Shown: piece by piece, positions 11,002 to 61,369 of the stretch
Layout of the letters: each line of letters opens with the position of its first letter
Numbering within the stretch: position 1 is the first letter of the stretch
Assembly: GCA_038044205.1 (NCBI GenBank)
Contig: JBBTAN010000017.1
Span: 30,027-94,026 of the forward strand
Reading direction: 5' to 3'
Length of the DNA: 64,000 bases
From: Nanobdellota archaeon
GTDB lineage: Archaea > Nanobdellota > Nanobdellia > Pacearchaeales > GW2011-AR1
The notes under the pieces: generated by a model
What the model saw: only the letters and a program-made list of their open reading frames with translations
Database searches by the model: none
Told to the model about the DNA's origin: nothing
Made by a program: the position numbers and the translations under genes

Positions 11002-11036
11002 ATGCCCGGAACCATGACACCTGTTCTTTTTATTTT
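11002..11036 (+). promoter_or_regulatory. motif-1 element (ATGCCCGGA-N20-TATTTT)
   Basis: exact 9-mer, copy 1 of 12. Confidence 0.55.
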
Positions 11037-11119
11037 TTACCGTTGACAAATAAAAAACAATAAAGGAATTTATTAATAAATTAAATAATATATATTTATA
11101 TTATTTAAAGAGGAATAAA

Positions 11120-11788
11120 ATGAAAAAAATGTCTAAATGGGAACAATCAATTATTAATAAATTCATAAAACAAGCTGAAGCTGAAGATGATAAAAAATTT
11201 CCTAAACAAAATATGGCGAATGTAAATGATATGAAAAAAGAAGGATTACCTTTGCTTCATTACGAAGTAAAATATCAACAAATAGAGGAAATTAAAAAAT
11301 TGATTGATTTGGGGGCTGACATCAACATTAGCGTACCCCCTGTAAATATGACACCTTTACTTTGGGCAATCTCGTATGGATTTTATGAAATTGCTGAATT
11401 ACTTATCAACAAGGGAGCGGATGTTAATAAAAGTGGTGGAATTGTAAAAACAACTCCACTTCAGTGGGCACTCTCAACTAAACGTACATCCTCACCTAAT
11501 ATACTTCCTGAAAAACGAAGAGAACTTGTTAATATACTTATTACTAATGGTGCTGATGTTAATGCCGTGCATTCTTCAAATGGGTATACCCCACTTCATA
11601 TCGCAGCTTCTCATGGTCACAAGGATGCTGTTGCTATGTTGCTCCTTGCTGGTGCAAATGTTAATATCAAAACATATAATGGAGAAACTCCACTGGACCT
11701 TGCGGTAAAGTTAAACCAGAAAAACAAAAGAAAAGGTAAGGAAGTTATAGAATTAATTAAAAAAGCAATTGATGGTAACAACAAATAA
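11120..11788 (+). CDS. ankyrin-repeat protein
   Basis: TPLLWAISYGFYEIAELLINKGADVN and TPLHIAASHGHKDAVAMLLLAGANVN repeats. Confidence 0.9.
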   Translation: MKKMSKWEQSIINKFIKQAEAEDDKKFPKQNMANVNDMKKEGLPLLHYEVKYQQIEEIKKLIDLGADINISVPPVNMTPLLWAISYGFYEIAELLINKGADVNKSGGIVKTTPLQWALSTKRTSSPNILPEKRRELVNILITNGADVNAVHSSNGYTPLHIAASHGHKDAVAMLLLAGANVNIKTYNGETPLDLAVKLNQKNKRKGKEVIELIKKAIDGNNK

Positions 11789-11809
11789 AGAAATCTATTA
11801 TTTTCCCTG

Positions 11810-11844
11810 ATGCCCGGAACAAAATTACCTACCGTACCCATTCC
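11810..11844 (+). promoter_or_regulatory. motif-1 element (ATGCCCGGA-N20-CATTCC)
   Basis: exact 9-mer preceded by ttttccctg; followed by GC-rich hairpin actgtgg 11848-11854 / ccacagt 11883-11889. Confidence 0.5.
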
Positions 11845-11934
11845 TAGACTGTGGAATATCGCCATTGTCCAGACAAATGCCGCCACAGTGCTTTAAAACA
11901 TCATTTAAATGGCAATGAATAATATATTATATAT

Positions 11935-11977
11935 CCAACTGATCCGACCATTGGATTTTTTATTTTTATTTTATTGT
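11935..11977 (+). promoter_or_regulatory. motif-2 element (CCAACTGATCCGA-N24-TATTGT)
   Basis: followed by AGATGAGAAA, as at 1870 and 28095. Confidence 0.55.
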
Positions 11978-12043
11978 AGATGAGAAATATTTTATATATT
12001 TTATTTTATTTGTTTTGTTCCCAATAATAAAAAGGAATACAAA

Positions 12044-12322
12044 ATGGACAACAAAAACAAAGAAATTACAGATGAAACAGAAATGTTACTAATAAGAGTA
12101 GAAAATGGAAAAGTACACGTAAGTCGTTCTTCTTTTTCCCATCCTATACATATACTTGTTGCTGATTATGATAATCCTAATGATGAAGATATTATCCAAG
12201 AATCAAAATCTTTCTATTTTCCATTAGAAGAAAAGTGTTTAGTTCAACATGTCTGGGAAAGTGTATTAATGCCTAAAGATACAGAAGAATTAAGAAAAAC
12301 TTTTTTCACTAAAAATAAATAA
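12044..12322 (+). CDS. hypothetical protein, family G
   Basis: GKVHVSRSSFSHPIHILVADYDNP..LMPKDTEELRKTFFTKN, shared with the C-terminal half of 12498. Confidence 0.65.
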   Translation: MDNKNKEITDETEMLLIRVENGKVHVSRSSFSHPIHILVADYDNPNDEDIIQESKSFYFPLEEKCLVQHVWESVLMPKDTEELRKTFFTKNK

Positions 12323-12390
12323 ATAATAAAATAATAACTATATATTTTATTTTGTTTTTCAATATAAATAAAATACATTTCCACCCAACC

Positions 12391-12433
12391 CCAACTGATC
12401 CGACAATGAATATTTTTATTTTATTTTTATTGT
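12391..12433 (+). promoter_or_regulatory. motif-2 element (CCAACTGATCCGA-N24-TATTGT)
   Basis: preceded by ccacccaacc. Confidence 0.55.
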
Positions 12434-12497
12434 ATGAGAAAATGAATAATTAATATATTTATATTTTTTTTTGTTTTAAAAATGAAAGGAAACAAAA

Positions 12498-13193
12498 ATG
12501 AAAATCGAATATTATGATTGCATAAATACTATACTCAATTACATAAAAGAAAATATTAAATCTATTTATTATGAGAAACCTATCCGATGCCAATTATTAA
12601 ATCAGAATGATGGAATTTCTAAAGGATTCTCTTTAGATTTTGAAAATGAAAATGTGATTATTTATTGTTATGAAAACCTCTATCCTGAAAAAAGTTTTAA
12701 AATTATTTATGAAATAAAACATGAAATGCCAGAAACAAATATTATTTATGGATTTTCTATGGAATCTTGTAAAAATACAGCTAATGCTATTGTTAATTAT
12801 ATAGAAAATTTCCTAGGTCTTGAAAAATCACAAATACATCCTATTCATCCAGACTATGAAATGAATAATGGAATAGAAATGCTAGTCATTGTGTTTAGTA
12901 ATGGGAAAGTCCAAGGTATAAATCGTTCCAATTTTTCCTATCCTATACATATTTTAGTTGCCGATTATGATAACCCTTATAACGAAAATCGGAAACTAGG
13001 ATCAAAAACATGTTGCATATCAGGATTACAATGTCTAGTTAGACCTGTTTGGGAAGGTTCATTAATGCCTAAAAATACAGAAAAATTAAGAAAAACTTTT
13101 TTCACTAAAAAAGAGCGTATCCTAACTGACGAAGAAAAAGAAGCAATTTATTATCATAACCATCCTGGTGAAATTAATAATGGACCATTTTAA
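12498..13193 (+). CDS. hypothetical protein, family G C-terminal domain
   Basis: 231 aa; GKVQGINRSNFSYPIHILVADYDNP..LMPKNTEKLRKTFFTKK. Confidence 0.7.
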   Translation: MKIEYYDCINTILNYIKENIKSIYYEKPIRCQLLNQNDGISKGFSLDFENENVIIYCYENLYPEKSFKIIYEIKHEMPETNIIYGFSMESCKNTANAIVNYIENFLGLEKSQIHPIHPDYEMNNGIEMLVIVFSNGKVQGINRSNFSYPIHILVADYDNPYNENRKLGSKTCCISGLQCLVRPVWEGSLMPKNTEKLRKTFFTKKERILTDEEKEAIYYHNHPGEINNGPF

Positions 13194-13206
13194 AAAGGAG
13201 AATCGA

Positions 13207-13380
13207 ATGAAACTCAACGAACCTTTTGATGCTTATATTGATTCCGAACATCAGCTAGACCATAAATACGCAGAATCCCTTGGCCTAAAAATTAAAAAGA
13301 AAAATATTATTATTATTGATTCTTTTGCCATACCTGATAAAAATAAAGAAAATAATAATAAAGAAAATGAAAACAAGTAA
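13207..13380 (+). CDS. hypothetical small protein
   Basis: ATG 13207 after SD aaaaaggag. Confidence 0.5.
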   Translation: MKLNEPFDAYIDSEHQLDHKYAESLGLKIKKKNIIIIDSFAIPDKNKENNNKENENK

Positions 13381-13455
13381 TTATATTTATTTTATTTGTT
13401 ATTTATATTTTGTTTTTCTCCAGCCACAGAATAAATGAAGGAATCTAAATAATTA

Positions 13456-13464
13456 TTGTATAAT
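13456..13464 (+). promoter_or_regulatory. TTGTATAAT -10-like element upstream of tRNA-Met
   Basis: ends 13 nt before the tRNA 5' end; same 9-mer as at 2606. Confidence 0.5.
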
Positions 13465-13477
13465 TTAATGAATTCAC

Positions 13478-13556
13478 GGGCCTGTAGCTCAATTGGTTTT
13501 AGAGCATCGGACTCATAATCCGGGGGTTCCAGGATCATGCCCTGGCAGGCCCACCA
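13478..13556 (+). tRNA. trnM: tRNA-Met-type (anticodon CAU; Ile2 not excluded) with atypical T-loop, CCA encoded
   Basis: perfect acceptor gggcctg/caggccc; D stem gctc/gagc; anticodon loop cTCATaa; T stem ccagg/cctgg but T loop atcatgc lacks TTC. Confidence 0.8.
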
Positions 13557-13662
13557 TTTTCAATCTTTCCCAAAAAAGAAAAAATAAATAAAGGAATCCG
13601 TTTCAATAACATACAATTTATATTAGTCCACAATATTGTGGTTTGATATATGGAGGTCCAAT

Positions 13663-14325
13663 ATGAAAGAACAGGAAAAGATTAAAGCTATTGAGTTGAG
13701 AAAACAAGGGTTATCAGTCAATAAAATAGCAAAAGAAGTTGGTGCTTCAAAAGGAACTGTCAGTGTATGGGTTAGAGATATTCAATTAACAAAAGAACAA
13801 AAGATTCAATTAGCTAAAAATAGAAATCCAGGTTATTCAGGATTTAGCACAAAAGAAATATTAGCAGAAGAAAAAGAAAAAAGAATAGAATCACAAAACA
13901 AAGGGAGAGAAATAGTAAAAAGTTGTGAAGAAGGATATAGGTATGGATGTATGTTATACTGGACAAAAGGTGAAAAAAATAAAAATTGTGTTGTATTCTC
14001 GAATACAGATGTAAATATAATGATTCTATTTATTAATTTTTTGAGAAAATATTTTAACTGCAATAATAAAGATTTTTCTATTTCTGTAACCGCTAATGTC
14101 AATAGTGAATATTCTTCTTCAGATATAGAAAATTTTTGGATCCAGAACCTTGGTATTGAAAAAGAATGTTTAAAAAAATCAACATTCAAGAAAAACGATA
14201 AAGAAAATAATGAATATCCTTATGGGAAATGTCGTATAGCTCTAAATAATACAGATGTAATTCAGCAGATTTATGGCTCTATTCAAGAAATTGGTGGATT
14301 CGTCCAGGAAGAATGGCTATATTGA
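13663..14325 (+). CDS. HTH plus LAGLIDADG-like homing-endonuclease-like protein, family H
   Basis: IELRKQGLSVNKIAKEVGASKGTVSVWV (HTH); CMLYWTKGEKNKN..FINFLRKYF..FW resembles a single-motif LAGLIDADG-type domain from memory. Confidence 0.5.
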   Translation: MKEQEKIKAIELRKQGLSVNKIAKEVGASKGTVSVWVRDIQLTKEQKIQLAKNRNPGYSGFSTKEILAEEKEKRIESQNKGREIVKSCEEGYRYGCMLYWTKGEKNKNCVVFSNTDVNIMILFINFLRKYFNCNNKDFSISVTANVNSEYSSSDIENFWIQNLGIEKECLKKSTFKKNDKENNEYPYGKCRIALNNTDVIQQIYGSIQEIGGFVQEEWLY

Positions 14326-14432
14326 TTTTTTATTTTTTAGAAAAAGAAAAATAAATAAAGGAATTTTTATACCCTATGCCGAATCTAAATATATCCAACA
14401 TCATTTCGATGTTTGGTATAAGGAGATTCGGT

Positions 14433-15143
14433 ATGAAAAAAGAAGAAAAAGCCAAAGCTATTGAATTACGCAAGCAAGGGTTTTCATTGCGTACAATATC
14501 AAAACAACTAGGCGCATGTAGAAGTAGTGTAAGTTATTGGGTTAGAAATGTTTTATTAACAGATGCTCAAAAAACACAATTGATAGCTAATAAAAATAAT
14601 AGTGGATATTTAGGATTTGGAGCAAGAGTTGTAGCTGCTAAAGCTAAAGAAAAAAGGATGGAGTATCAAAATATAGGAATAGAAAAAGCTAGTAATTGCG
14701 ATATAGAATATTCAATGGGATGTATGTTGTATTGGGCCGAAGGTAGTAAAAATAAAAATGCTGTAATATTTACAAACACAGATGTTGATATGATGGTATT
14801 TTTTGTGAATTTTATGAGAAAATATTTCAATTGTAATAATGAAGACTTTGCAGTATCTATAAATACTTATTTAGATAATGGCTACACTGAAATTGAAGTG
14901 GAAAATTTTTGGATGGAAAAATTTAAACTTGACAGAACTTGTTTAAGAAAATCAATTTTTAGAAAAGGTGATGGGACAGGTAAATATCCTTATGGAACAT
15001 GTAGAATAAGTATAGGTAGCACAAAAATAGTTCAACAGATATATGGTTCTATACAAAAATTAATTGGTTTTAAAAGGGAATTGTGGTTAAATGGTAGCAG
15101 GGGTTGGAAAGGCCAAAATAAAAATTTAGAATCAATCAAATAA
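14433..15143 (+). CDS. HTH plus LAGLIDADG-like homing-endonuclease-like protein, family H
   Basis: paralog of 13663: IELRKQGFSLRTISKQLGACRSSVSYWV, CMLYWAEGSKNKN, FVNFMRKYF. Confidence 0.5.
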   Translation: MKKEEKAKAIELRKQGFSLRTISKQLGACRSSVSYWVRNVLLTDAQKTQLIANKNNSGYLGFGARVVAAKAKEKRMEYQNIGIEKASNCDIEYSMGCMLYWAEGSKNKNAVIFTNTDVDMMVFFVNFMRKYFNCNNEDFAVSINTYLDNGYTEIEVENFWMEKFKLDRTCLRKSIFRKGDGTGKYPYGTCRISIGSTKIVQQIYGSIQKLIGFKRELWLNGSRGWKGQNKNLESIK

Positions 15144-15151
15144 TAAAAAAT

Positions 15152-15227
15152 GGGCTAGTGGGGATGGTCTCCTCGCAACGTCTTATAAGCGTTGTTTTCT
15201 CAGTTCAATTCTGAGCTAGGCTTACCA
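15152..15227 (+). tRNA. trnI: non-canonical tRNA-like gene, anticodon UAU (Ile, AUA)
   Basis: T arm ctcag-ttcaatt-ctgag; anticodon stem aacgt/gcgtt with loop cTTATaa; acceptor gggctag/ctaggct has a G-G mismatch; crowded D arm; 3' tail t-acca. Confidence 0.55.
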
Positions 15228-15235
15228 TAAAAAAG

Positions 15236-15253
15236 AGATAGTATCAACTATCT
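15236..15253 (+). repeat. hairpin agatag-tatcaa-ctatct, copy 1
   Basis: near-identical hairpin at 15670-15687; the pair brackets gene 15270-15614. Confidence 0.6.
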
Positions 15254-15269
15254 TATTGGAGTAAATGTA

Positions 15270-15614
15270 ATGAGACGGAATTATTTAGTTCCTAAAGAAA
15301 AGTGTTATGATTGCAATGTAAATATAGGTGAGTTTCATGTTGATGGTTGTGATATAGAGATATGTCCAGAGTGTGGTGGTCAATGGATATCCTGTGAATG
15401 TGAAATAGATGAAGATGAACGTATTCCTTACGATGGGTATTTTCCAGGGACATTAGAGGCTATTGAATGTAATTTATATAGTAGATGGGATGAAGAGAAA
15501 AAGAGATGGATTAAGTGTTCAGCAGATGATATGGATGCAGGTCCGGACCTTAATCGTATTAGAGAAATAGGGACATGGGACAAAAAATCAAAAAAGTGGG
15601 TTGTCGTACAGTAA
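15270..15614 (+). CDS. Cys-rich hypothetical protein
   Basis: 114 aa with SD; CYDCNVNIGEFHVDGCDIEICPECGGQWISCEC. Confidence 0.7.
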   Translation: MRRNYLVPKEKCYDCNVNIGEFHVDGCDIEICPECGGQWISCECEIDEDERIPYDGYFPGTLEAIECNLYSRWDEEKKRWIKCSADDMDAGPDLNRIREIGTWDKKSKKWVVVQ

Positions 15615-15669
15615 CTTTAGAAAATAAAAATAAATAATTATTTTTTATTGTTGTGGACCAAAAATAAAA

Positions 15670-16950: not shown

Positions 16951-16991
16951 AATAAACATATATAATTTATTATTTTATTTTTTAAAAGGAG
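16951..16991 (+). repeat. 41-nt exact repeat, copy 1 (aataaacatatataatttattattttattttttaaaaggag)
   Basis: identical at 17886-17926; contains TATAAT and supplies the SD of the next gene. Confidence 0.8.
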
Positions 16992-16997
16992 AAGTAA

Positions 16998-17726: not shown

Positions 17727-17900
17727 ATGAGAGAAGAAGATCGGAATCGACTAATAGAGATAAAAAAGAAGATAAAATTGGGTATTATTTCCAGTCCAAT
17801 TGAGAAGAAATTTTTAGAGCAAATGTGGAACAATTACAGAGTAGAATATTGCGAGATAGAGCAATTGGTAGGGGATTATGGAATAAATAAACATATATAA
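17727..17900 (+). CDS. hypothetical small protein
   Basis: 57 aa, SD ggaggg; the 3' end runs into repeat copy 2. Confidence 0.5.
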   Translation: MREEDRNRLIEIKKKIKLGIISSPIEKKFLEQMWNNYRVEYCEIEQLVGDYGINKHI

Positions 17901-17926
17901 TTTATTATTTTATTTTTTAAAAGGAG
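17886..17926 (+). repeat. 41-nt exact repeat, copy 2
   Basis: identical to 16951-16991. Confidence 0.8.
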
Positions 17927-20403: not shown

Positions 20404-20438
20404 ATGCCCGGAAGATGGTCGGTTGGGGGTCATATTAT
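20404..20438 (+). promoter_or_regulatory. motif-1 element (ATGCCCGGA-N20-TATTAT)
   Basis: exact 9-mer; motif 2 follows 20 nt later. Confidence 0.6.
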
Positions 20439-20458
20439 TTTACAGATGGATTATTTTC

Positions 20459-20496
20459 CCAATTGATCCGAATAATTCATCTGAATTATTTATTAT
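20459..20496 (+). promoter_or_regulatory. motif-2 element (CCAATTGATCCGA-N19-TATTAT)
   Basis: 24 nt upstream of ATG 20521. Confidence 0.55.
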
Positions 20497-22029: not shown

Positions 22030-22035
22030 TTAAAA

Positions 22036-22173
22036 TTAGATATATAGTTATTTGTACGAGCTTTGCCACTATATATCTAAACTGTCTATGCTCGACCGAG
22101 GCAGCATTAAAATGGAAAATAGATAACGTTTATTTATTTTTTGTTTCAATGGTGAGTAGGAGGGCGTTTTTTT
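22036..22173 (+). ncRNA. structured tandem repeat unit A
   Basis: 13-bp hairpin ttagatatatagt 22036-22048 / actatatatctaa 22068-22080 with a GC-rich loop; shares order and 3' block aatggtKAGgaRRRGSc with unit B. Confidence 0.45.
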
Positions 22174-22177
22174 AGAA

Positions 22178-22310
22178 TTAAATATATAGTATTGTTAATC
22201 CGCCTCTACTATATATTTAAACCGTCTAATCCGCCTTTTCTGAGACGGCATTAATAAAAATATATAACCCCTTATTTATTTTTATTTAATGGTTAGGAAA
22301 AGGCTTTATT
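22178..22310 (+). ncRNA. structured tandem repeat unit B
   Basis: hairpin ttaaatatatagt 22178-22190 / actatatatttaa 22208-22220 (G-C of unit A replaced by A-T); second hairpin ccgtct/agacgg; aatccgcc occurs in both loops. Confidence 0.45.
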
Positions 22311-22401
22311 ATTTTTATTTCTGTATATTGTTATCATATACAGTGGATTGAAACCAGAAACGCCACTAAACGCATTGTAGACCACGGAGAACCATTTTTC
22401 A

Positions 22402-22437
22402 ATGCCCGGAGGGATTAGACCTACCGCGTCCTATTAT
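22402..22437 (+). promoter_or_regulatory. motif-1 element (ATGCCCGGA-N21-TATTAT-N5-GTGGC)
   Basis: the only copy with a 21-nt spacer. Confidence 0.55.
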
Positions 22438-22486
22438 CGACCGTGGCAATCAATTCTTTTTATTTTCACACAAAAAGGAAAAATTT

Positions 22487-23766: not shown

Positions 23767-23801
23767 ATGCCAGGAAAGGCATAGAGACATGCAAGCATTC
23801 T
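23767..23801 (+). promoter_or_regulatory. degenerate motif-1 element (ATGCCAGGA-N20-CATTCT)
   Basis: one mismatch in the 9-mer. Confidence 0.35.
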
Positions 23802-23849
23802 CTATTGTGGTCCAAATTTTCGTGAAAGTAAAAGAAAAGGAGAAAGAAC

Positions 23850-28056: not shown

Positions 28057-28094
28057 ACAATTGATCCGATTGACTTTTTGAAATGTAGTATTGT
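28057..28094 (+). promoter_or_regulatory. motif-2 element (ACAATTGATCCGA-N19-TATTGT)
   Basis: sits directly on an orphan SD plus ATG (aaaaggagtaaaaaATGGACAATTGA); followed by AGAAGAGAAA. Confidence 0.5.
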
Positions 28095-28648: not shown

Positions 28649-29107
28649 ATGAAAGTGCGTTTGACGATTGATTTTGATTTAGGCGACAAATATAATGAAA
28701 AAGATTTTAATTTTTTGGAAGATAGATTACCTAAATATTATTTTTGTGATCCACATAGTAATCTTGCAGAAATGGCTATGGTTAATGGAATTCCTAAAAA
28801 AGATGAAACTATTGAGGATGTTGCTTGTTGTGAAAGTTCTCAAAAACATTACTTGGAAATGGTGCAAATAGCAGATACTGCTACCTGCAAATTTGAACAA
28901 ATAAAGGAGAAGAAAATGGACGCACAAGAAGCATTAAATATACTACGTAGAATAATCCATAAAGTTGATTATGATCATTCTGATATTTTATTCTATAACG
29001 CTAAAGAAGCTGTTGAAATTCTTACAAAAGAAATAAATAAACCAAAATATAAACCTGTTGATAATATTATTATTTCTACACCTACAACTAAATGGAAGAT
29101 TCCCTGA
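28649..29107 (+). CDS. hypothetical protein, family U N-terminus
   Basis: 152 aa; stop TGA 29105-29107 overlaps the ATG of motif 1. Confidence 0.65.
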   Translation: MKVRLTIDFDLGDKYNEKDFNFLEDRLPKYYFCDPHSNLAEMAMVNGIPKKDETIEDVACCESSQKHYLEMVQIADTATCKFEQIKEKKMDAQEALNILRRIIHKVDYDHSDILFYNAKEAVEILTKEINKPKYKPVDNIIISTPTTKWKIP

Positions 29108-29141
29108 TGCCCGGATAGGCATTTCCCTGCCTACTGATTAT
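29107..29141 (+). promoter_or_regulatory. motif-1 element (ATGCCCGGA-N20-GATTAT)
   Basis: exact 9-mer in a TGATG stop-start overlap. Confidence 0.55.
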
Positions 29142-29186
29142 AGATTGAAAATATAGAAAAGTAAGATAAAGAAAGGAGTAAGTAAC

Positions 29187-31874: not shown

Positions 31875-31909
31875 ATGCCCGGAAAGAGCGTAGACGGTTC
31901 AAGTATTAT
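31875..31909 (+). promoter_or_regulatory. motif-1 element (ATGCCCGGA-N20-TATTAT-N5-GTGGC)
   Basis: about 70 percent identical over about 50 nt to the 55205 copy. Confidence 0.6.
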
Positions 31910-31960
31910 ATTTCGTGGCCAAAACAGTTAGAAAGTATAATTTAGCAAGGAGAAAGAAAA

Positions 31961-39181: not shown

Positions 39182-39219
39182 ACAACTGATCCGAAATAGA
39201 TTTTTCTATTTTCTATTGT
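39182..39219 (+). promoter_or_regulatory. motif-2 element (ACAACTGATCCGA-N19-TATTGT)
   Basis: here it precedes motif 1 (reverse of the usual order). Confidence 0.5.
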
Positions 39220-39242: not shown

Positions 39243-39277
39243 ATGCCCGGAAGGGGCAAGGAATGGACAATTATTCT
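39243..39277 (+). promoter_or_regulatory. motif-1 element (ATGCCCGGA-N20-TATTCT)
   Basis: its reading frame runs 25 codons and ends in an ATGA overlap with ATG 39317. Confidence 0.55.
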
Positions 39278-39316
39278 CAACTGTCAAGGAATACTTGTTG
39301 GTTGGAAAGGAGAAAA

Positions 39317-41895: not shown

Positions 41896-42363
41896 ATGAG
41901 TAAGTTTGGAAGTGGTTATAGTTGGAATGGTTCTGATGAATTCCCTGTACTTTGTTATTTTGATGATAATAAAAATTTATTTATTGATGACGTTCCTGCC
42001 ACTGTAAATACTCCTGATATTGTTAGAACTATAATAAAATATTTGCTTATTGATAAAAAAAATATTGAAATATGTTTTTATTTTAATTATAAGGGTTATT
42101 ATGATCCAGGAAAACTAAACGATCTACCTGAAAATTGTTACCCACCTGAAAGTGAAGATGAGAGAGAAATAACGGATTTTTATGTATGGGATATTGATAG
42201 TAAAGATATTATTTATATCTCTGATGAAGATAAAAAGACTATTATGGATAATTGGAAATATATTGACAAAAAGCTTTATGAGATTGAAATTGACACTAAA
42301 TCTGATGATTCTTATGATCCGCCTGATGTCGATGATTATGAACCTTCCTATAGAAGCTTCTAA
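41896..42363 (+). CDS. hypothetical protein, family B
   Basis: SGYSWNGSDEFPVLCYFDD..DSYDPPDVDDYEPSYR. Confidence 0.65.
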   Translation: MSKFGSGYSWNGSDEFPVLCYFDDNKNLFIDDVPATVNTPDIVRTIIKYLLIDKKNIEICFYFNYKGYYDPGKLNDLPENCYPPESEDEREITDFYVWDIDSKDIIYISDEDKKTIMDNWKYIDKKLYEIEIDTKSDDSYDPPDVDDYEPSYRSF

Positions 42364-45582: not shown

Positions 45583-45772
45583 GGTTAGCTGGGAAATTGA
45601 CATTGATGCTAATAGTCCTTATGAGGCTGCTAAAGAGGCTTTTAAAATTATGCAAGAGCCAGGATCTTCTGCTACATTTTTTGAAGTTACTTCACCTAAA
45701 GGAAATAAATATCAATATGATCTTGAGTATGGTGATGATGATAATAAAGATAATTATGATGAGAATGGTTGA
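45569..45772 (+). CDS. hypothetical acidic protein
   Basis: ATG 45569 after SD aaggagaaagaaa; stop TGA 45770-45772 overlaps the motif-1 ATG. Confidence 0.6.
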   Translation: MKEFRVSWEIDIDANSPYEAAKEAFKIMQEPGSSATFFEVTSPKGNKYQYDLEYGDDDNKDNYDENG

Positions 45773-45806
45773 TGCCCGGAATGATAGAAAACTGGCGTTC
45801 TATTAT
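45772..45806 (+). promoter_or_regulatory. motif-1 element (ATGCCCGGA-N20-TATTAT)
   Basis: followed by hairpin acgccaaa-tgg-tttggcgt (45815-45833) abutting the SD; its frame ends in an ATGA overlap with ATG 45849. Confidence 0.6.
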
Positions 45807-45848
45807 AGTTTGTAAACGCCAAATGGTTTGGCGTAAGGAGAAAGAAGA

Positions 45849-46109: not shown

Positions 46110-46583
46110 ATGCGTGGTTATAGTTGGAATGGTTCTGATGAATTTGCTGTTCTTTGTTATTTTGATGAAGATAATAAAAATTTACTTATTGATGAAAGTC
46201 CTGCCCCAGTTGATACTCCAGTTGAGATTCTAAATATCATTGCAAATCTTCTTACTGAAGCTCAAAATATTGAAATTTATTTTAAATTTAATTACAACGG
46301 TTATTATGATCCAGGAGAACTAAATGATCTACCTGAAAATTGTCACCCCCCTGAAAATGAAAATGAAGATAAAAGAGAGGTAACTGGTCTTTATGTTAAA
46401 GATGTAGATACAAAGGGACTTATTTATATTACCGATGAAGACAAAAAGACTCTTATGAGTAATTGGAAGTATATCGACGAAAAGCTTTATAGTGTTAAAA
46501 TTGATACTAAATCTGATGATTCTTATGATCCGCCTGATGTCGATACTTATGAACCTTCCTACAGAAAGTTTTATTGGAAATAA
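46110..46583 (+). CDS. hypothetical protein, family B
   Basis: RGYSWNGSDEFAVLCYFDE..DSYDPPDVDTYEPSYR; the 3' end is nearly identical at the nucleotide level to 41896. Confidence 0.65.
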   Translation: MRGYSWNGSDEFAVLCYFDEDNKNLLIDESPAPVDTPVEILNIIANLLTEAQNIEIYFKFNYNGYYDPGELNDLPENCHPPENENEDKREVTGLYVKDVDTKGLIYITDEDKKTLMSNWKYIDEKLYSVKIDTKSDDSYDPPDVDTYEPSYRKFYWK

Positions 46584-49099: not shown

Positions 49100-49134
49100 A
49101 TGCCCGGAGACGATTTGGACCCTGTTCTTATTAT
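49100..49134 (+). promoter_or_regulatory. motif-1 element (ATGCCCGGA-N20-TATTAT)
   Basis: the hexamer abuts the ggag of the next gene's SD. Confidence 0.55.
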
Positions 49135-49146
49135 GGAGTAGAAAAC

Positions 49147-49289: not shown

Positions 49290-49466
49290 ATGGCAAAAGA
49301 AATTATCAAAAACAGTCCCAAGGAAAAAGAATTTGCTATTCAATGTTTTATTGATGGTCAAAGAGTTCAAACCCATAAACTAAATAAAGAAGAAGCTGCT
49401 AATTTTATTGTTACTGCAAAGCATTTAATTGATTATTTGTCTAAAGAATATGGAATTGAAAAATAA
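49290..49466 (+). CDS. hypothetical small protein
   Basis: 58 aa, SD aaaaaggag. Confidence 0.5.
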   Translation: MAKEIIKNSPKEKEFAIQCFIDGQRVQTHKLNKEEAANFIVTAKHLIDYLSKEYGIEK

Positions 49467-52970: not shown

Positions 52971-52994
52971 ATAAAAAATAATAAATAAATCAAT

Positions 52995-53020
52995 AGGGGG
53001 CTTCTACAGCCCCTTATTTT
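52995..53020 (+). terminator. rho-independent terminator-like hairpin
   Basis: aggggc-ttctaca-gcccct followed by tatttt. Confidence 0.6.
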
Positions 53021-53042: not shown

Positions 53043-53077
53043 ATGCCCGGAGCAAATCGCTCTCAATGCCCTATTAT
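53043..53077 (+). promoter_or_regulatory. motif-1 element (ATGCCCGGA-N20-TATTAT)
   Basis: motif 2 follows 16 nt later. Confidence 0.6.
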
Positions 53078-53093
53078 TCGTTATAGGCCAATT

Positions 53094-53131
53094 CCAATTG
53101 ATCCGAATAAACATAATTTTCTTTTTATTAT
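53094..53131 (+). promoter_or_regulatory. motif-2 element (CCAATTGATCCGA-N19-TATTAT)
   Basis: the hexamer abuts the SD gaaaggag of ATG 53147. Confidence 0.5.
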
Positions 53132-54902: not shown

Positions 54903-55205
54903 ATGAGAACGACTTTCAATATTGATAATATTCATAATTATGAAATAAGTATTGAAACTAAAGATGATATTCAATTTGACTTTATTTCAGAATCATTGAA
55001 GAAGTTTGGAAAATTTTATAGCAATAAATATAAAGATAATTTTGGAGGAAATTGGTATTCTGAAGGGATTTATACAGATCTTACAAAAGAGAATTTGCTT
55101 AAAGATATACGACAAACTATTTTTACTGCAAATAATCAATCTTTTGCTGTGGATATTATGATTACGTTCAATGTTAGAGAGACATATAGCTTTGATTCTT
55201 GGTGA
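54903..55205 (+). CDS. small protein, family D (4 of 6)
   Basis: NYEISIET..NNQSFAVDIMITF; stop TGA overlaps the motif-1 ATG. Confidence 0.6.
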   Translation: MRTTFNIDNIHNYEISIETKDDIQFDFISESLKKFGKFYSNKYKDNFGGNWYSEGIYTDLTKENLLKDIRQTIFTANNQSFAVDIMITFNVRETYSFDSW

Positions 55206-55239
55206 TGCCCGGAAAGAGTTTGTACAGGGTAAGTATTAT
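55205..55239 (+). promoter_or_regulatory. motif-1 element (ATGCCCGGA-N20-TATTAT-N5-GTGGC) embedded in a coding start
   Basis: exact 9-mer; the same nucleotides encode MPGKSLYRVSIIYCGK of the family D gene. Confidence 0.5.
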
Positions 55240-55525
55240 CTATTGTGGCAAAATTATGGTTAAAGGTGCAGATGAAAAAATGATTGGTGATATTTTTTCT
55301 AATTTGAAAAATTATATTACTTCCATCAATATGAATGAAACTAAATTTGGATTATATTTTTATGCTAATAAGTTCTCTACGGAATTTGATAAAAAACAAT
55401 TGTCTGAACTTCTTTATTGTAGAATCAATAGTATCAATGGAAAACCCTGCGATATTGAATTTTTTATTTCTCATAGTATTACAGATAGGTTTTATTTTCC
55501 TCTCCCTCAAAAGAAAGAAAAATGA
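55205..55525 (+). CDS. small protein, family D (5 of 6), apparently starting on the motif-1 ATG
   Basis: the homologous N-terminal strand LYRVSIIY (compare HYRVSVRII in 55809) lies upstream of the internal ATGs 55256 and 55280; NGKPCDIEFFISH. Confidence 0.55.
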   Translation: MPGKSLYRVSIIYCGKIMVKGADEKMIGDIFSNLKNYITSINMNETKFGLYFYANKFSTEFDKKQLSELLYCRINSINGKPCDIEFFISHSITDRFYFPLPQKKEK

Positions 55526-56569: not shown

Positions 56570-57286
56570 ATGAACGATGTTGAAATTGATGAGACTGTTG
56601 AGAAGATCAAGGAATTTTCCAATAAGGGTATCCCTTGTTATGTTTGGGGTAGGATTACTGGACCTTATTCTGGTTGTTTTTATCTTAATGTTATTGGTAT
56701 TGTGAAAGATGATAAGTGTTACGTAACCGCTGAACTTAATTCTTATCTTTCTTACAAGCAGTATGTCGCCCCTTCTGATTACAAGTCTGATTATCTTACA
56801 GTTGGTTGTGTAAAAATTGAAAATATTGAGGATGTTTTGGGAAGGGGTTATAGGGAGATTAAAGTTAAGCCCCTTACTGATATTGTTGAGGATGTTCCTT
56901 ATGCTTGTGTTGGACAGGTTATTGATATGATTGATGACCTTGGTTATGATAGGCCGGAAGGATTTGTTTGTAAGTGTTGCGATACCCCTTTTGAGGATAA
57001 GGATGATGTTATGTATCTTGAGGGAGAGTTTAGAGGCAATGGTGGTATTGGTATTGAAGTTGGTGCGCCAGTTTGTCAAAACTGCTATTTGGAACGTCAT
57101 TGTTCTTATTGTGGGGAGGAAATTGAAATTTATCAAGGGGATCTTGATGAGGATAGTCATTGTATTTATTGCTGCAAGGAAAAGATTTGTATTAAGTGTG
57201 GAGAAAAAATTAAAATTGATTGGTATAATAAGGAAAAGGATGTTGAGAATTTTATAAAGGGAATCTGTAGCGATTGCGCGGAGTAA
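56570..57286 (+). CDS. multi-zinc-finger Cys-rich protein
   Basis: 238 aa; CKCCD, CQNC, CSYCG, CIYCC, CIKCG and CSDC pairs; about 197 codons without TTA, CTA or TCA. Confidence 0.7.
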   Translation: MNDVEIDETVEKIKEFSNKGIPCYVWGRITGPYSGCFYLNVIGIVKDDKCYVTAELNSYLSYKQYVAPSDYKSDYLTVGCVKIENIEDVLGRGYREIKVKPLTDIVEDVPYACVGQVIDMIDDLGYDRPEGFVCKCCDTPFEDKDDVMYLEGEFRGNGGIGIEVGAPVCQNCYLERHCSYCGEEIEIYQGDLDEDSHCIYCCKEKICIKCGEKIKIDWYNKEKDVENFIKGICSDCAE

Positions 57287-57298
57287 AGGAGAGAAAAC

Positions 57299-57466
57299 AT
57301 GAAAAAGATTTTTATTGAAGTTAAAGGTGGAGTTGTTACAGGAGTTCTTACTGATATAGATACCAACCTTGATGTTATTGTTGTTGATTATGACAATGAC
57401 GATAAACCTATTCTACAAGTGCGAGAGGATTTTATCAAAGAAAATACAACTCATTATATCTACTAA
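57299..57466 (+). CDS. hypothetical small protein
   Basis: 55 aa, SD aaaggagagaaaac. Confidence 0.5.
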   Translation: MKKIFIEVKGGVVTGVLTDIDTNLDVIVVDYDNDDKPILQVREDFIKENTTHYIY

Positions 57467-57474
57467 CCATAAAG

Positions 57475-57500
57475 GCCAAACTTTAATTAGTTTGGCTTTT
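57475..57500 (+). terminator. rho-independent terminator-like hairpin
   Basis: gccaaact-ttaatt-agtttggc followed by tttt. Confidence 0.6.
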
Positions 57501-57532
57501 AATTATAGAGGCTAAATAAAAAAGGAGAACAA

Positions 57533-57908
57533 ATGCCAGAGAAATGTCTATTTAATAAAAAATATAAATTATATTATGTAAAAGATAATATTATTATCTA
57601 TGGCCCTCATGATAAATTAATAAATACGGATAATATATATGGTGATTGTTCTTTTATTTTTGGAGATGCGAAAAATATATACGGAACAGTTACTAATTTG
57701 ATTGGGGATGTTACAGGTTCTTCTGGAGATGTAACTTATAATTGGAGATGTTACAGGTATTAATGGAGATTTTAGTGGGCTTGAAGGAAAAATTAATTAT
57801 ATTTCTGATGAAGAAAGAAAAAATGGAATATCTGTTGAGGATTTATTGAAAGAAGAAAGAGAAAATAGAAATTGTTTGTCTCAAATAATGAAAGGAGAAA
57901 GTAAATGA
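57533..57908 (+). pseudogene. GD-repeat protein split by a frameshift
   Basis: ..IYGDCSFIFGDAKNIYGTVTNLIGDVTGSSGDVTY then stop; the repeat continues as LIIGDVTGINGDFSGLEGKIN.. in the +1 frame, open from 57735 and ending in an ATGA overlap with 57905. Confidence 0.55.
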
Positions 57909-58111
57909 ATGATAGATTTCTTGAGAAGAGGCTTCAGCTTTACAATAGATATTTAGTTAGAAAGTTACAAGGATTTTATTGGAGAGATGGGTTTTGGGGT
58001 AAAAGATCTTTTAGAAAATTATATCCTGTTGGCAATAAAAATAAAGGAACTCATTGCAGAACTATTAATTTTATTCATATTGAAAAGTATTGGGAATCAA
58101 GGAGTAAGTAA
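57905..58111 (+). CDS. hypothetical basic protein
   Basis: 68 aa. Confidence 0.55.
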   Translation: MNDRFLEKRLQLYNRYLVRKLQGFYWRDGFWGKRSFRKLYPVGNKNKGTHCRTINFIHIEKYWESRSK

Positions 58112-58411
58112 ATGAATTATAGTAATATTAGTAATGATGAATGGTCCGCTACTAAACATATTAGAAATGCTAAATTCAATTATGAATTAGCGGTATTTGA
58201 ATTCATGCGAGATAAATGGATTCTTGATCCTAAATATAAAAATAAATTTATTGCTATTCATAATGGAAAGATAATTGCTATTGGGGATGATTTTGTTGCT
58301 CTTGCTAGAGAAGTAAGAGATTTATCAGAGATAGAAGGACCAATTCCTATTTGTTTTGTTGAGGAAAAGAATAATATAGAACATTTTGATGGAACAGTAT
58401 TGTCGAATTAA
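58112..58411 (+). CDS. hypothetical protein (DUF5678-like pattern, weak)
   Basis: NKFIAIHNGKIIAIGDDFVALAREV. Confidence 0.6.
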   Translation: MNYSNISNDEWSATKHIRNAKFNYELAVFEFMRDKWILDPKYKNKFIAIHNGKIIAIGDDFVALAREVRDLSEIEGPIPICFVEEKNNIEHFDGTVLSN

Positions 58412-58433
58412 AAATAGTGAAAGGAGTAAGTGA

Positions 58434-58727
58434 ATGAATAAAAGTGATTTTCTTGGTCTTGTTTCTTCTTCTGTGGACAATAATCCTGATTGGGTGAAGG
58501 ATATTATGTCGGCTATATCTCTTGCTATTACAGATAAATATGAGAAAGAAATGAATAAAAAAGCAATTGCTGATGTTGCTATTTGTCATTTGATGAATGA
58601 AAAAATTAACTCTGAAAAGATCAATGCTTGGGGTCGAAGAGTTATTGTTAAAGCTATTAATGATGGTAGTTTTGGCGGGACTGAATGGGCAACTGAAATA
58701 ATTGAAAAGTTGACTAAAAAGGAATAA
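58434..58727 (+). CDS. hypothetical protein
   Basis: 97 aa with SD. Confidence 0.6.
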   Translation: MNKSDFLGLVSSSVDNNPDWVKDIMSAISLAITDKYEKEMNKKAIADVAICHLMNEKINSEKINAWGRRVIVKAINDGSFGGTEWATEIIEKLTKKE

Positions 58728-58730
58728 AAA

Positions 58731-59051
58731 ATGAACGATTATAAGACTGTTGTTGTATTTAGAAAGTTGAAAGATAGTGGAGATATTCTTGCTTTGTTCC
58801 CACAGGAGTATTCTGATATTACTGGAAATCTTTGTTCTTCTTTTGAACATGTAGGCGGTCATGGTGGGGCTGATTATTCTCATTGTATTAAGCAAACTCT
58901 TCCTTGTAATCCTGCTGAATATGAAGATACCAAAAACGAACTAGAAAAAATTGGATATGATCTTATTATTAAAAATAGTTCTCGGCCAAATAGAGATAAA
59001 AAGATCAGGTTGAGGGAATTGAAAGAATTGGACCTTAATAGGAGTAAGTAA
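58731..59051 (+). CDS. hypothetical protein
   Basis: 106 aa with SD. Confidence 0.6.
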   Translation: MNDYKTVVVFRKLKDSGDILALFPQEYSDITGNLCSSFEHVGGHGGADYSHCIKQTLPCNPAEYEDTKNELEKIGYDLIIKNSSRPNRDKKIRLRELKELDLNRSK

Positions 59052-59336
59052 ATGAATAATAATTATATTATTAGACTGAAAGATCTTTACAATGAAACTG
59101 TAGTGGCTATTGCAAAGAAATGTATGAATACTACTGATAATGTTTTCCCTGAAGTGCGAAACTATATTGGAGGTTCTAAAATGACAGCATTGGTAGTTCT
59201 TGCTTGTTGTATGAATAATAATTACTCTGATGTTTATGATGATATTGATCGTGCTATCTATTCTATGTCCACTGATGTAATGCAATCTATAGCCAATTGT
59301 TATTCTAATTCTATTGTTTGTTTTGGAAAGGAGTAA
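59052..59336 (+). CDS. hypothetical protein, family R
   Basis: LKDLYNETVVAIAKKCM..MTALVVLACCMNNN. Confidence 0.6.
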   Translation: MNNNYIIRLKDLYNETVVAIAKKCMNTTDNVFPEVRNYIGGSKMTALVVLACCMNNNYSDVYDDIDRAIYSMSTDVMQSIANCYSNSIVCFGKE

Positions 59337-59340
59337 ATAA

Positions 59341-59613
59341 ATGAATAATACAACTATCCGAGAACTAAAAGAACTTTATATTCTTGAGGTTGAAAGAATT
59401 GCGAATAAATGTTTATATAAATACGATATTCCACAAGAGGTAAAAGAATATATTGATTCTCCATTGACAGCTTTAGTTGTTATTCTTTGTACAGATAGTG
59501 ATTATTGGAGAAAAAATAATGATGCAGTTAATGCTATGTGTTCTGATGTAATGAAATGTATGTCTAATAATTTATCTGAATCTGTTCTTTGTTTTGAATA
59601 TAGCGAAGAATAA
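59341..59613 (+). CDS. hypothetical protein, family R
   Basis: LKELYILEVERIANKCL..LTALVVILCTDSD. Confidence 0.6.
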   Translation: MNNTTIRELKELYILEVERIANKCLYKYDIPQEVKEYIDSPLTALVVILCTDSDYWRKNNDAVNAMCSDVMKCMSNNLSESVLCFEYSEE

Positions 59614-59630
59614 AAAAAAGGAGAAAGTAA

Positions 59631-59942
59631 ATGAAAAAGAATAAGTTGAATTTGTATAGACTTTGGGTTGATGAAAAAGATTATTATCCTGGTTTTTTTG
59701 ATTTTTGTGGGAAATATGAATCTGTTATTGTTTGTGCGAAGAATGAAAAGGAAGCTAAATTAATTACCCCTACTAAAGAAGATCAAAAATTACAAGATGA
59801 TGGAACATGGTTTTATGATCATGGATGGGTCACATCTCCAGATAAAGTTCATATCCAACATATTGGAGTTGCTAATGAAAATATAAAACCAGGTATTGTA
59901 GTTGCTTCTCTTGTTGGAGAAAGTGATATATATCCAGATTGA
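59631..59942 (+). CDS. hypothetical protein, family A
   Basis: YESVIVCAKNEKEAKLITP..VHIQHIGVANENIKPGIVVASL. Confidence 0.65.
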   Translation: MKKNKLNLYRLWVDEKDYYPGFFDFCGKYESVIVCAKNEKEAKLITPTKEDQKLQDDGTWFYDHGWVTSPDKVHIQHIGVANENIKPGIVVASLVGESDIYPD

Positions 59943-59964
59943 CATAAAATAAAGGAATAAGTAA

Positions 59965-60256
59965 ATGACAGATAAAGAAAAAGAAATTATTGATTCAGTA
60001 ACAATTAATTTTTATAGTTCTATAAAACATAAATATTGTTTAGATATAGAAAATATTGCTAAAAGTCTTCCGCCAAGCGATAGAGCAATACAATGCACGA
60101 AATATAGATAAATCATCTATTATTTCTCTTTTTATTCTTGCTTGTAGTAACAATAGAAAAGATTATGGAAGTGGTAATTTTAGATATGATATTTCTGATA
60201 TAGCTTTTGATACTATGTATGGGGACATTCTAAAAAAGGAGAAAGAAAATGAGTGA
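59965..60256 (+). pseudogene. family R paralog split by a frameshift
   Basis: the N-terminal part from ATG 59965 (..CLDIENIAKSL..) stops at 60111; the homologous remainder AIEQYNARNIDKSSIISLFILACSNN.. is in the +1 frame. Confidence 0.55.
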
Positions 60257-60527
60257 TGATGAAATGAGTGATGTTAAACCTGATTCCTTTTATGTTAATG
60301 GAAATATTGATGATATGAGGACTATTTATTTGAAGGATTTGGCAGAAATTGTAAAGAAAAGCCTTAATACTCCAATTCAGAATGTTGTAGAGGATTATAT
60401 TTATTCTCCATTTATGGCTTTATTTGTTATTGTTTGTAGCGAAACCAAAGATTATAGTAAAAATAATGTTGTTGAGGTTGCTCGCAATATTATTTATGAA
60501 GATGTGAAAAATTGGATAACCGAATAA
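60249..60527 (+). CDS. hypothetical protein, family R
   Basis: IYLKDLAEIVKKSL..FMALFVIVCSETKD. Confidence 0.6.
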   Translation: MSDDEMSDVKPDSFYVNGNIDDMRTIYLKDLAEIVKKSLNTPIQNVVEDYIYSPFMALFVIVCSETKDYSKNNVVEVARNIIYEDVKNWITE

Positions 60528-60542
60528 AAAAGGAAAAAGAAA

Positions 60543-60740
60543 ATGAATAATATTGATAGCATTAAACGTATTATTAAATATTTGTCAGGTAATGAAGATA
60601 TTGATTTAATTAGTACTCAAATAGAACTAAAAAATGCTTTGTCTTTTATTTGTAATGAATTTGAGGAAATTAGAAAATTGATTGAGAACAAAGATACCGG
60701 AGGTTTTAGTAGAACTGAATGGTCAGAAAAAAATAAGTAA
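60543..60740 (+). CDS. hypothetical small protein
   Basis: 65 aa with SD. Confidence 0.55.
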   Translation: MNNIDSIKRIIKYLSGNEDIDLISTQIELKNALSFICNEFEEIRKLIENKDTGGFSRTEWSEKNK

Positions 60741-60751
60741 GGAGAAAGAAA

Positions 60752-61279
60752 ATGACAAGTGTTGATCTTTGTCCAAGGATATATGTTGCTTCTCTTGCTG
60801 ATTACAATAATGGTAATCTTCATGGAATTTGGATTGATCTTGATGAAAATACTGATGTTGATGAAGTTTTTGAGAAGATTAATAAAATGCTAAGTGAATC
60901 TAAATATCCTGTTGCAGAAGAGTTTGCTATACATGATTATGATGATTTTGGAGGTATGGAAATTAATGAAAATGAATCAATTGAAAATGTAGTTGAAATG
61001 GCTAATTATCTTACTAAACATGGTGAAGCCTTTGCTCTTTGGTCTAATAATGTTGGGTTTGAAGGAGCTAAAGATAATTTTGAAGAGGCTTATGTTGGAC
61101 ATTATGATTCTAAAAAGCAATATGCTGAACAGTTTGCTGATGATATTTATTCAGCAAAGGATTTGGGAGAATTAGCTATTTATATTGATTGGGAAAAGTA
61201 TGCTGATGATTTGTTTAGTAATGATTATTGCGATATAGAAGGTAATAGATCTGGTATTTATGTCTTTCGTAACATCTAA
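60752..61279 (+). CDS. ardA: ArdA antirestriction protein (DNA mimic, anti type I R-M)
   Basis: CPRIYVASLADYNNGNLHGIWIDLDENTDVDEV..VAEEFAIHDYDDFGG..YIDWEKYADDLF..IYVF matches the ArdA family signature closely; highly acidic. Confidence 0.9.
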   Translation: MTSVDLCPRIYVASLADYNNGNLHGIWIDLDENTDVDEVFEKINKMLSESKYPVAEEFAIHDYDDFGGMEINENESIENVVEMANYLTKHGEAFALWSNNVGFEGAKDNFEEAYVGHYDSKKQYAEQFADDIYSAKDLGELAIYIDWEKYADDLFSNDYCDIEGNRSGIYVFRNI

Positions 61280-61285
61280 AAAATA

Positions 61286-61315
61286 AGGGCCAACATTAAG
61301 TTGGCCCCTATTTTA
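61286..61315 (+). terminator. rho-independent terminator-like hairpin
   Basis: agggccaac-attaa-gttggcccct followed by atttta. Confidence 0.6.
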
Positions 61316-61334
61316 ATAGAAGACAAATTTTCCC

Positions 61335-61369
61335 ATGCCCGGAGACAAATCTATAGCCATTCCTATTAT
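61335..61369 (+). promoter_or_regulatory. motif-1 element (ATGCCCGGA-N20-TATTAT)
   Basis: preceded by attttccc. Confidence 0.6.

Follow-up and report, generated by a model that had tools for sequence, protein, structure and literature searches.

The DNA analysed here, hereafter the window, is a 64-kb stretch of a 499,814-bp contig (ENA ERZ1292626 Hain_H43_01um_R3_3) from the 0.1-µm fraction of Hainich groundwater well H43. It has a GC content of 29% and carries about 170 short genes, nearly all on the + strand, with strong AAGGAG-type Shine-Dalgarno (SD) sites. Recognisable products include ClpP, ArdA, a DUF932 protein, an RNA ligase, ankyrin-repeat proteins and some helix-turn-helix (HTH) proteins, and 39 PHROG phage families were matched among 145 window proteins. 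ARAGORN calls four tRNA genes, three of which are confirmed by Rfam. Gene content places the window in the accessory or early-type part of a huge phage's genome. It runs in reverse on the contig, window base x being contig base 218415 - x. Dispersed between its genes is a repeated element composed of a 9-mer, ATGCCCGGA, a 20-nucleotide (nt) spacer and a hexamer that is most often TATTAT. This element, designated class 1, is the subject of the present analysis, and its copies are numbered by the window position of the first base of the 9-mer.

A strand-biased repeat between co-directional genes

The 9-mer ATGCCCGGA occurs 12 times in the window, always on the + strand, compared with a mean of 0.13 and a maximum of one occurrence in dinucleotide-preserving shuffles; ribosome-binding-site words aside, it is the most over-represented 9-mer of the window. 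The sole copy with one mismatch, ATGCCAGGA, lies at 23767, also on the + strand. Both the 12 exact copies, with their positions and common strand, and the single variant had been listed in a preliminary description of the window, and all were recovered. Roughly 10 kb of flanking contig was read on each side in addition (19.5 kb of flank, 83.5 kb in total), a region in which TnpB and dCMP deaminase genes are recognisable. The flanks hold exact copies at window coordinates -4679, 64163, 65556 and 68674, all intergenic and on the + strand, and a second one-base variant, ATGCCTGGA-N20-TATTAT, at -4484 (+), likewise intergenic. The 83.5 kb thus contain 16 exact copies and two one-base variants, both of which deviate at base 6 of the 9-mer.

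The placement of the element follows two rules. The 9-mer is oriented with the gene strand in all 18 copies and is absent from the minus strand of the 83.5 kb (gene strand versus opposite, 18:0). None of the 18 copies lies inside a gene: all are intergenic or share a single base with the upstream stop codon, the latter being a TGA in three copies, and intergenic 20-mers account for only about 11% of window positions. The siting at gene boundaries or in intergenic gaps, noted earlier for the window, extends to the flanks, where a search for the word inside genes and on both strands again returned no intragenic and no minus-strand copy. Most class-1 copies are internal to long co-directional gene arrays, and the pair at -4679 and -4484 heads the rightward array from within a divergent intergenic region. 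An intrinsic terminator precedes only two copies (53043 and 61335), by 25–26 nt, and the element is not generally linked to terminators.

The distance between the 9-mer and the hexamer is 20 nt in 17 of 18 copies and 21 nt in one (22402). Among the 12 exact copies of the window, TATTAT is found at N20 in seven and at N21 at 22402; the others carry TATTTT (11002), CATTCC (11810), GATTAT (29107) and TATTCT (39243), which reproduces the hexamers and spacings of the preliminary description. Overall, the hexamer is TATTAT in 12/18 copies, its second and third bases being A and T in every one, so that it conforms to the TAnnnT type of -10 hexamer of sigma-dependent bacterial promoters. The fixed spacing is beyond chance because TATTAT occurs at only ~0.6% of intergenic positions (a frequency of ~0.006 per position). 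The spacer, in turn, is unconserved yet GC-rich, as had been described, with values of 0.35–0.62 (mean 0.47) compared with 0.29 in intergenic 20-mers; its weak preferences are a purine at +4 and TTC directly before the hexamer. Upstream, the 10 nt preceding the 9-mer are 68% pyrimidine against a background of 44%, with the consensus ttTt.ct. The reported leader word TTTTCCC(T)G therefore stands as a pyrimidine-rich run, while the exact word is loose, TG immediately before the 9-mer being present in 7/18 copies. A purine directly follows the 9-mer in 16 of 17 copies scored. In all, about 20 positions per element are constrained, the shared sequence amounting to ~9 + 6 nt with unrelated spacers; extra bases are shared by a few copies, for instance CCCTGTTCTTATTAT at 49100 and 68674. 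This anatomy, like the strand and position rules and the start-like pyrimidine-purine signal described below, is a matter of direct observation.

Predicted start sites and a second repeat class

A further regularity lies downstream of the hexamer. All 17 copies scored have a pyrimidine as the fifth base past the hexamer, and 16 of them have a purine as the sixth. The combined pyrimidine-purine (Y-R) step at +5/+6 is observed in 16/17 copies against a background of 0.22 (binomial P ~5e-10) and forms the sole peak among 45 offsets; 11810 is the single copy that lacks it. Bacterial transcription starts characteristically show Y(-1)R(+1), and +5/+6 is its expected distance from a -10 element. A start is therefore predicted at the purine 6 nt after the hexamer. 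About eight copies run on as (G/A)TGG(C) at this predicted start, and the longer form TATTAT-N5-GTGGC, pointed out earlier for three copies, is indeed present at 22402, 31875 and 55205. The next called gene begins 34–78 nt past the predicted start in 13 of the 18 copies, and in most copies an SD-led open reading frame (ORF) typically lies 30–80 nt downstream of it. Judged by eye, several of the longer leaders hold an uncalled SD-led ORF or an element of the second class described below.

The class-1 copies of the window, all on the + strand, are given here from the 9-mer to the predicted start. The copy at 11002–11042 (ATGCCCGGA-N20-TATTTT; predicted start G 11042) lies upstream of the ankyrin-repeat gene 11120–11788, and is followed by the copy with the weak hexamer CATTCC at 11810–11850, the one without Y-R at +5/+6. 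At 20404–20444, TATTAT at N20 leads to a predicted start at A 20444, with a class-2 element next at 20460. The only N21 copy, 22402–22443, carries TATTAT-N5-GTGGC and has a predicted start at G 22443, ahead of a gene from 22487. Directly upstream of it is a 457-nt intergenic region in which two ~140-nt direct repeats, each with short hairpins, occupy 22030–22400. The variant ATGCCAGGA-N20-CATTCT spans 23767–23807 (predicted start G 23807; gene from 23850). In the GATTAT copy at 29107–29147, the first A of the 9-mer ends the TGA stop of the gene 28649–29107, and TAG follows the 9-mer. For this and the remaining exact copies, the purine 6 nt past the hexamer places the predicted starts at 29147, 31915, 39283, 45812, 49140, 53083, 55245 and 61375. 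The copy at 31875–31915 (TATTAT-N5-GTGGC) precedes a gene from 31961; the TATTCT copy at 39243–39283 is 60 nt downstream of a class-2 element at 39183 and precedes a gene from 39317; and the copy at 45772–45812 overlaps the upstream TGA stop by 1 nt and precedes a gene from 45849. At 49100–49140, with TATTAT at N20, the next well-supported gene begins at 49290. The copy at 53043–53083 follows the RNA ligase gene, with an intrinsic terminator (52993–53017) ending 26 nt before it and a class-2 element next at 53095. The copy at 55205–55245 (TATTAT-N5-GTGGC) again shares 1 nt with the upstream TGA stop, and that at 61335–61375 lies downstream of ardA, 25 nt after an intrinsic terminator at 61284–61310, with a gene from 61414.

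A second over-represented word, CAAYTGATCCGA, is followed by 18–19 AT-rich nt and then by TATTNT; this arrangement is referred to as the class-2 element, and in several copies GTAGA(T/A)GAGAAA comes after the TATTNT. In the window, class-2 elements lie on the + strand at 1839–1875 (CAATTGATCC...-TATTCT-ATGGTAGATGAGAAA), 1920–1961 (CAACTGATCCGA...TATTAT), 7546–7582 (downstream of clpP), 11936–11978 (126 nt downstream of the class-1 copy 11810), 12392–12434 and 28058–28094 (downstream of the DUF932 gene). Three more stand in tandem with class-1 copies, at 20460–20496 (with 20404), 39183–39219 (with 39243) and 53095–53131 (with 53043). The flanks add copies at L045:1029, on the minus strand, and at L048:12242 and L048:18771. 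The minus-strand copy stands before minus-strand genes, and class-2 orientation therefore follows transcription. The class-2 element is probably a second promoter class. The two classes are found in tandem at five loci; temporally distinct phage promoter classes often lie in tandem, and the arrangement suggests two temporal or regulatory classes of promoter.

Canonical promoters, in contrast, are not evident. The pattern TTGACA-N16-18-TATAAT is not enriched at 20–40 kb (127 matches versus 116 ± 10 in shuffles), and its stronger matches fall inside genes, equally on both strands. A TTGACA-like hexamer 16–18 bp from the -10 is also lacking in class 1, where GGA and variable bases are found instead. 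As a separate observation, a duplicated intergenic block, ACATATATAATTTATTATTTTATTTTTTAAAAGGAG, is located at ~16965–16997 and 17890–17925, directly before two genes, and may represent a third, AT-rich cassette carrying a promoter or ribosome-binding site.

Promoter reading and its rivals

The class-1 repeats are probably promoters. The promoter class proposed in the preliminary description gains support, at the level of sequence, from the Y/R start signal, from the SD-led ORFs downstream, from the co-orientation with genes, from a second class that switches strand with transcription and from the lack of enrichment of canonical sigma70-type sites. Beyond this, the explanation that we favour, with reasonable though not high confidence, is a bipartite promoter class whose 9-mer has a dedicated and probably phage-encoded reader, in an uncultured groundwater phage of ~500 kb. 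In such a promoter, a bacterial-type (sigma-dependent, multi-subunit) RNA polymerase would read the element. TATTAT would serve as the -10 element, at about -11 to -6, read by sigma region 2, and transcription would begin at the purine 6 nt past the hexamer. ATGCCCGGA would then lie at about -40 to -32, standing in for TTGACA. The GGA at the end of the 9-mer coincides with the upstream half of the -35 position, because the canonical TTG likewise ends 20 bp from the -10, and the other six bases extend upstream. Candidates for the dedicated reader are a phage sigma factor whose region 4 is unusual and an activator or sigma-remodelling pair of the T4 MotA/AsiA kind; the pyrimidine-rich run and the GC-rich 20-bp spacer would tune the site. 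Each copy would initiate or boost the transcription of small accessory genes arranged in a co-directional block. That RNA polymerase initiates here, that a factor reads the 9-mer and that the phage encodes this factor are steps that we infer, and the phage origin of the factor is plausible.

Several results weigh against this explanation. No sigma factor (Sigma70_r2/r4), MotA/AsiA-like or RNA polymerase gene was found among the 145 window proteins with Pfam and PHROG. The 9-mer is exact in 16/18 copies, a uniformity greater than is usual for -35 elements or MotA boxes, and with its end 20 bp from the -10 it lies upstream of the usual reading position of sigma region 4. To our knowledge, a GC-rich spacer has no role in promoters. 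NCBI names the proteins of the contig ‘Nanoarchaeota archaeon’, and bacterial promoter rules would not apply if that name were right. Finally, no relative of the phage was found in INPHARED, IMG/VR, a collection of 5.8 billion proteins, the GTDB matches listed or metagenome contigs. As regards the polymerase itself, a bipartite signal with a sigma-like -10 makes a single-subunit or non-virion phage RNA polymerase unlikely.

The searches for relatives were made at several levels. Megablast and blastn against INPHARED phages returned no match, the motif pattern gave 41 single chance matches in IMG/VR, and IMG/VR scans seeded with the RNA ligase and DUF932 proteins gave no match. The 265-aa protein encoded downstream of the 31875 copy found only itself among the 5.8 billion proteins, and homologues of the RNA ligase (54–61% identity) lie on contigs of 51–54% GC without the motif. 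In GTDB genome contigs, the pattern gave only single chance matches among the matches listed, and a tighter pattern gave 108 stretches in metagenome contigs, all apparently due to chance. Further assemblies of this phage show at least 99.99% identity and therefore offer no usable population variation. Among the results of full-text literature searches, motif and contig are nowhere described.

A broader version of the favoured explanation, which we hold to be rather doubtful, is that the accessory region runs on a wholly non-canonical two-class code, ATGCCCGGA-N20-TATTAT and CAAYTGATCCGA-N18/19-TATTNT, with undescribed phage-encoded factors acting at -40/-32. The reader would then be a sigma factor with an unusually long, rigid upstream footprint or a MotA-like adaptor at a new position, and the GC-rich spacer, constrained in its composition, would itself contribute to recognition. 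Given that no host-type promoters are evident, the virion might bring in the factor for one class at least.

The same shortage of canonical signals can be turned towards the host. Promoters read by a host sigma factor, either the primary one with unusual -35 specificity or an alternative, extracytoplasmic function (ECF)-like one, would require no phage factor, in keeping with the absence of a phage sigma or activator from the 83.5 kb. Some non-canonical signal must serve the host polymerase at the start of infection if canonical sigma70 sites are not enriched, and two class-1 copies do precede the first rightward genes at the divergent region; moreover, the GGA that ends the 9-mer and the purine that follows it resemble the GGAA(C) of ECF-type -35 elements. 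However, the -10 TATTAT is housekeeping-like rather than ECF-like, sigma region 4 does not usually reach over as many as nine invariant bases, and both 596 Gb of prokaryotic genomes and, separately, metagenomes gave chance-like single matches, with no multi-copy genome among the matches listed. A host sigma is, on balance, unlikely. The exactness of the 9-mer, typical of a tight binding site, its overlap with the -35 region and the several HTH proteins encoded nearby would also suit an operator, at which a phage repressor or shut-off protein regulates rather than recruits the polymerase beside -10-only promoters. We consider this improbable: the 9-mer is no palindrome, there are 0 occurrences of its reverse complement TCCGGGCAT, the promoters would be left without an upstream recognition element and without an extended -10 TG, and the strict 20-bp phasing with the -10 favours one complex that reads both parts.

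Readings in which initiation is secondary, or archaeal, fare worse. The preliminary description had likened the repeats to promoter/stem-loop (PeSL) cassettes. As such, they would be mobile regulatory units that serve mainly as stretches of homology at which recombination shuffles small genes. The copies do lie beside small ORFan-like genes, within an accessory region that is long, a few share extra bases (CCCTGTTCTTATTAT in the two copies named above), and the GC-rich spacer superficially resembles the GC-rich stem-loops that often lie between -35 and -10 in T4-type PeSL cassettes (PMC2839356). The likeness did not hold up, and this role is very improbable: there is no sigma70-like -35 and no recurrent stem-loop (z < -2 in only 2/17 spacers), and the shared ~9 + 6 nt are far below the ~100 bp conserved in PeSL cassettes or the <50-bp homology patches needed for T4 recombination, as cited in PMC2839356. 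An archaeal-type promoter, with TATTAT as the TATA box and the 9-mer as an upstream activator site, would agree with the NCBI protein label and with a sample fraction rich in DPANN archaea (PMC12960796). Its start would fall at 20–28 nt, where no Y/R peak exists, the only peak being at 5–6 nt; the sequence just upstream of the hexamer is pyrimidine- and GC-rich rather than a purine-rich B recognition element (BRE); and the ClpP of the window is of bacterial type, with ArdA and a bacterial N-methyl pilin motif present as well. We regard it as extremely improbable. Equally little credence is given to a polar signal, in DNA or RNA, that has nothing to do with initiation, such as a word of the Chi or FtsK-orienting polar sequence (KOPS) kind, an ops- or nut-like antitermination site or an RNA processing site. 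The complete strand bias (18:0) would be explained, as would the many copies that lie in co-directional arrays with no terminator before them and would be transcribed through. Chi/KOPS-type words, however, occur in genes, where none of the 18 copies is found; the fixed 20-nt distance and the Y/R signal would be left unexplained; and no conserved RNA structure or Rfam match is associated with the element.

The ClpP of the window shares 65–72% identity with ClpP proteins of bacterial cells whose genes lie in tig-clpP-clpX operons; its closest homologues are cellular bacterial genes on contigs of 58–72% GC, and given this composition of the closest donors the host is not pinpointed by them. A bacterial N-methyl pilin motif and ArdA are present among the window proteins. 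The phage PHROG families, ArdA, the bacterial-type ClpP and the SD-led small genes together indicate a mis-binned huge bacteriophage. These features point to a bacterial host, and we treat the ‘Nanoarchaeota’ label as a binning artefact.

Other identities for the element and its reader were considered and rejected. A conserved leader peptide starting from the ATG of the 9-mer is contradicted by the stop at 29107 (ATG CCC GGA TAG) and by frames that differ between copies. A hairpin or terminator does not fit either: minimum free energies (MFE) scored against dinucleotide shuffles have a mean z of -0.40 from the 9-mer to the hexamer and of -0.32 over the first 45 nt of the leader, and only isolated copies fold. 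The Rfam scan of the window found only tRNAs. Restriction-site avoidance around CCGG is not apparent, CCGG being at its expected frequency. The spacers gave only chance 11–12-mer matches in the 83.5 kb when considered as targets or guides, an idea raised by a nearby TnpB gene. That TnpB-like gene (OrfB_IS605 + Cas12f1-like_TNB, 360 aa) lies on the minus strand at window coordinates -1160 to -78 (L045:8744–9826) and is the sole minus-strand gene within the rightward array. A TFIIB-like factor was suggested by a Pfam Zn_Ribbon_TF match; the match seems to stem from a member of a group of a dozen small zinc-ribbon proteins with CxxC motifs. Two paralogues with an N-terminal HTH_23 domain were likewise set aside as readers of the motif, being more like homing-endonuclease-type genes by tRNAs, with no evidence either way.

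These HTH_23 paralogues, at 13663–14322 and 14433–15140, are 51% identical, have a conserved C-terminal block (LYW-x-x-G) and each lie beside a tRNA gene; a homing-endonuclease-like nature or a role as DNA-binding regulators may be considered for them. At 15152–15223, ARAGORN calls a tRNA-Ile with anticodon TAT, on which the Rfam tRNA model is silent at its gathering threshold. Elsewhere, a 417-nt gene-free stretch (3533–3949) contains GC-rich structured segments: a 19-nt inverted repeat (3537–3555 / 3655–3673, 95% complementary) encloses ~100 nt, and two repeats ~110 nt apart end in TATTAT and a T-run. They may be small RNAs; Rfam gave no match to the stretch at the gathering threshold. The paralogous genes 41896–42363 and 46110–46583 have a near-identical stretch of ~45 nt in common (TTGA[CT]ACTAAATCTGATGATTCTTATGATCCGCCTGATGTCGAT).

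Huge uncultured phages are known almost solely as gene lists, and the scheduling of their transcription is largely unknown. The promoter model yields predicted starts, a second class in tandem and operon boundaries for ~170 unannotated small genes and makes a clear prediction for metatranscriptome mapping, and ATGCCCGGA can serve as DNA bait for the cognate factor. Its value lies in the annotation of this phage, with no conceptual change unless the factor proves unusual.

Comparison with known systems

Of the systems compared, two do not fit class 1. An archaeal TATA/BRE promoter would show a purine-rich BRE and a start signal ~22–27 nt downstream, neither of which is present, and words such as Chi and KOPS share the strand bias of the class-1 word but not its complete exclusion from coding sequence (0/18). 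Canonical sigma70/sigmaA promoters (TTGACA-N17-TATAAT) have in common with class 1 the TAnnnT -10, a pyrimidine-purine step at the start (in class 1 a predicted one) and a T-rich stretch near the site of the UP element. They differ in the upstream element, which in class 1 is another sequence, 9 nt long and invariant, with only its last 3 nt overlapping the position of the -35 hexamer, and in the spacer, which in class 1 is GC-rich within a genome of 29% GC.

The promoters of the middle (gp28) and late (gp34) genes of phage SPO1 also pair a phage-specific upstream element with a downstream element at a fixed distance. The SPO1 sigma factors alter both elements, as in AGGAGA/TTTnTTT and CGTTAGA/GATATT, whereas the class-1 -10 is housekeeping-like and common to two classes, and the 83.5 kb yielded no sigma gene. 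In the Bacillus phage, gp28 and gp34 switch the host RNA polymerase to the phage gene classes (PMC13401047). PeSL cassettes resemble class 1 as repeated, promoter-bearing intergenic elements among small accessory genes, in which GC-rich sequence between the boxes is possible (PMC2839356). They consist of strong sigma70-like promoters and stem-loop terminators with ~100 bp conserved (PMC2839356, PMC4122927), compared with ~20 constrained nt in class 1; a sigma70 -35, a recurrent stem-loop and related spacers, the three features tested, are all missing.

The closest functional analogue is provided by the middle promoters of T4. Both combine a host-like TAnnnT -10 with a 9-bp non-host box that replaces the -35, and the T4 promoters, like class 1, often lie in tandem with another class, before small early-region genes and in one direction (PMC2988021). 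The MotA box, (a/t)(a/t)(a/t)TGCTTtA, is positioned 12 ± 1 bp from the -10 and centred at -30 (PMC2988021). The class-1 box, ATGCCCGGA, lies 20 bp from its hexamer (21 in one copy) and is centred near -36, thus differing from the MotA box in both sequence and distance; MotA boxes also tolerate many deviations, whereas the class-1 box is exact in 16/18 copies. Class 1 most likely adds a new consensus to a well-known type of signal, bipartite promoters specific to phages, rather than being a new kind of element, and what is unusual in it is the position of its box and the composition of its spacer.

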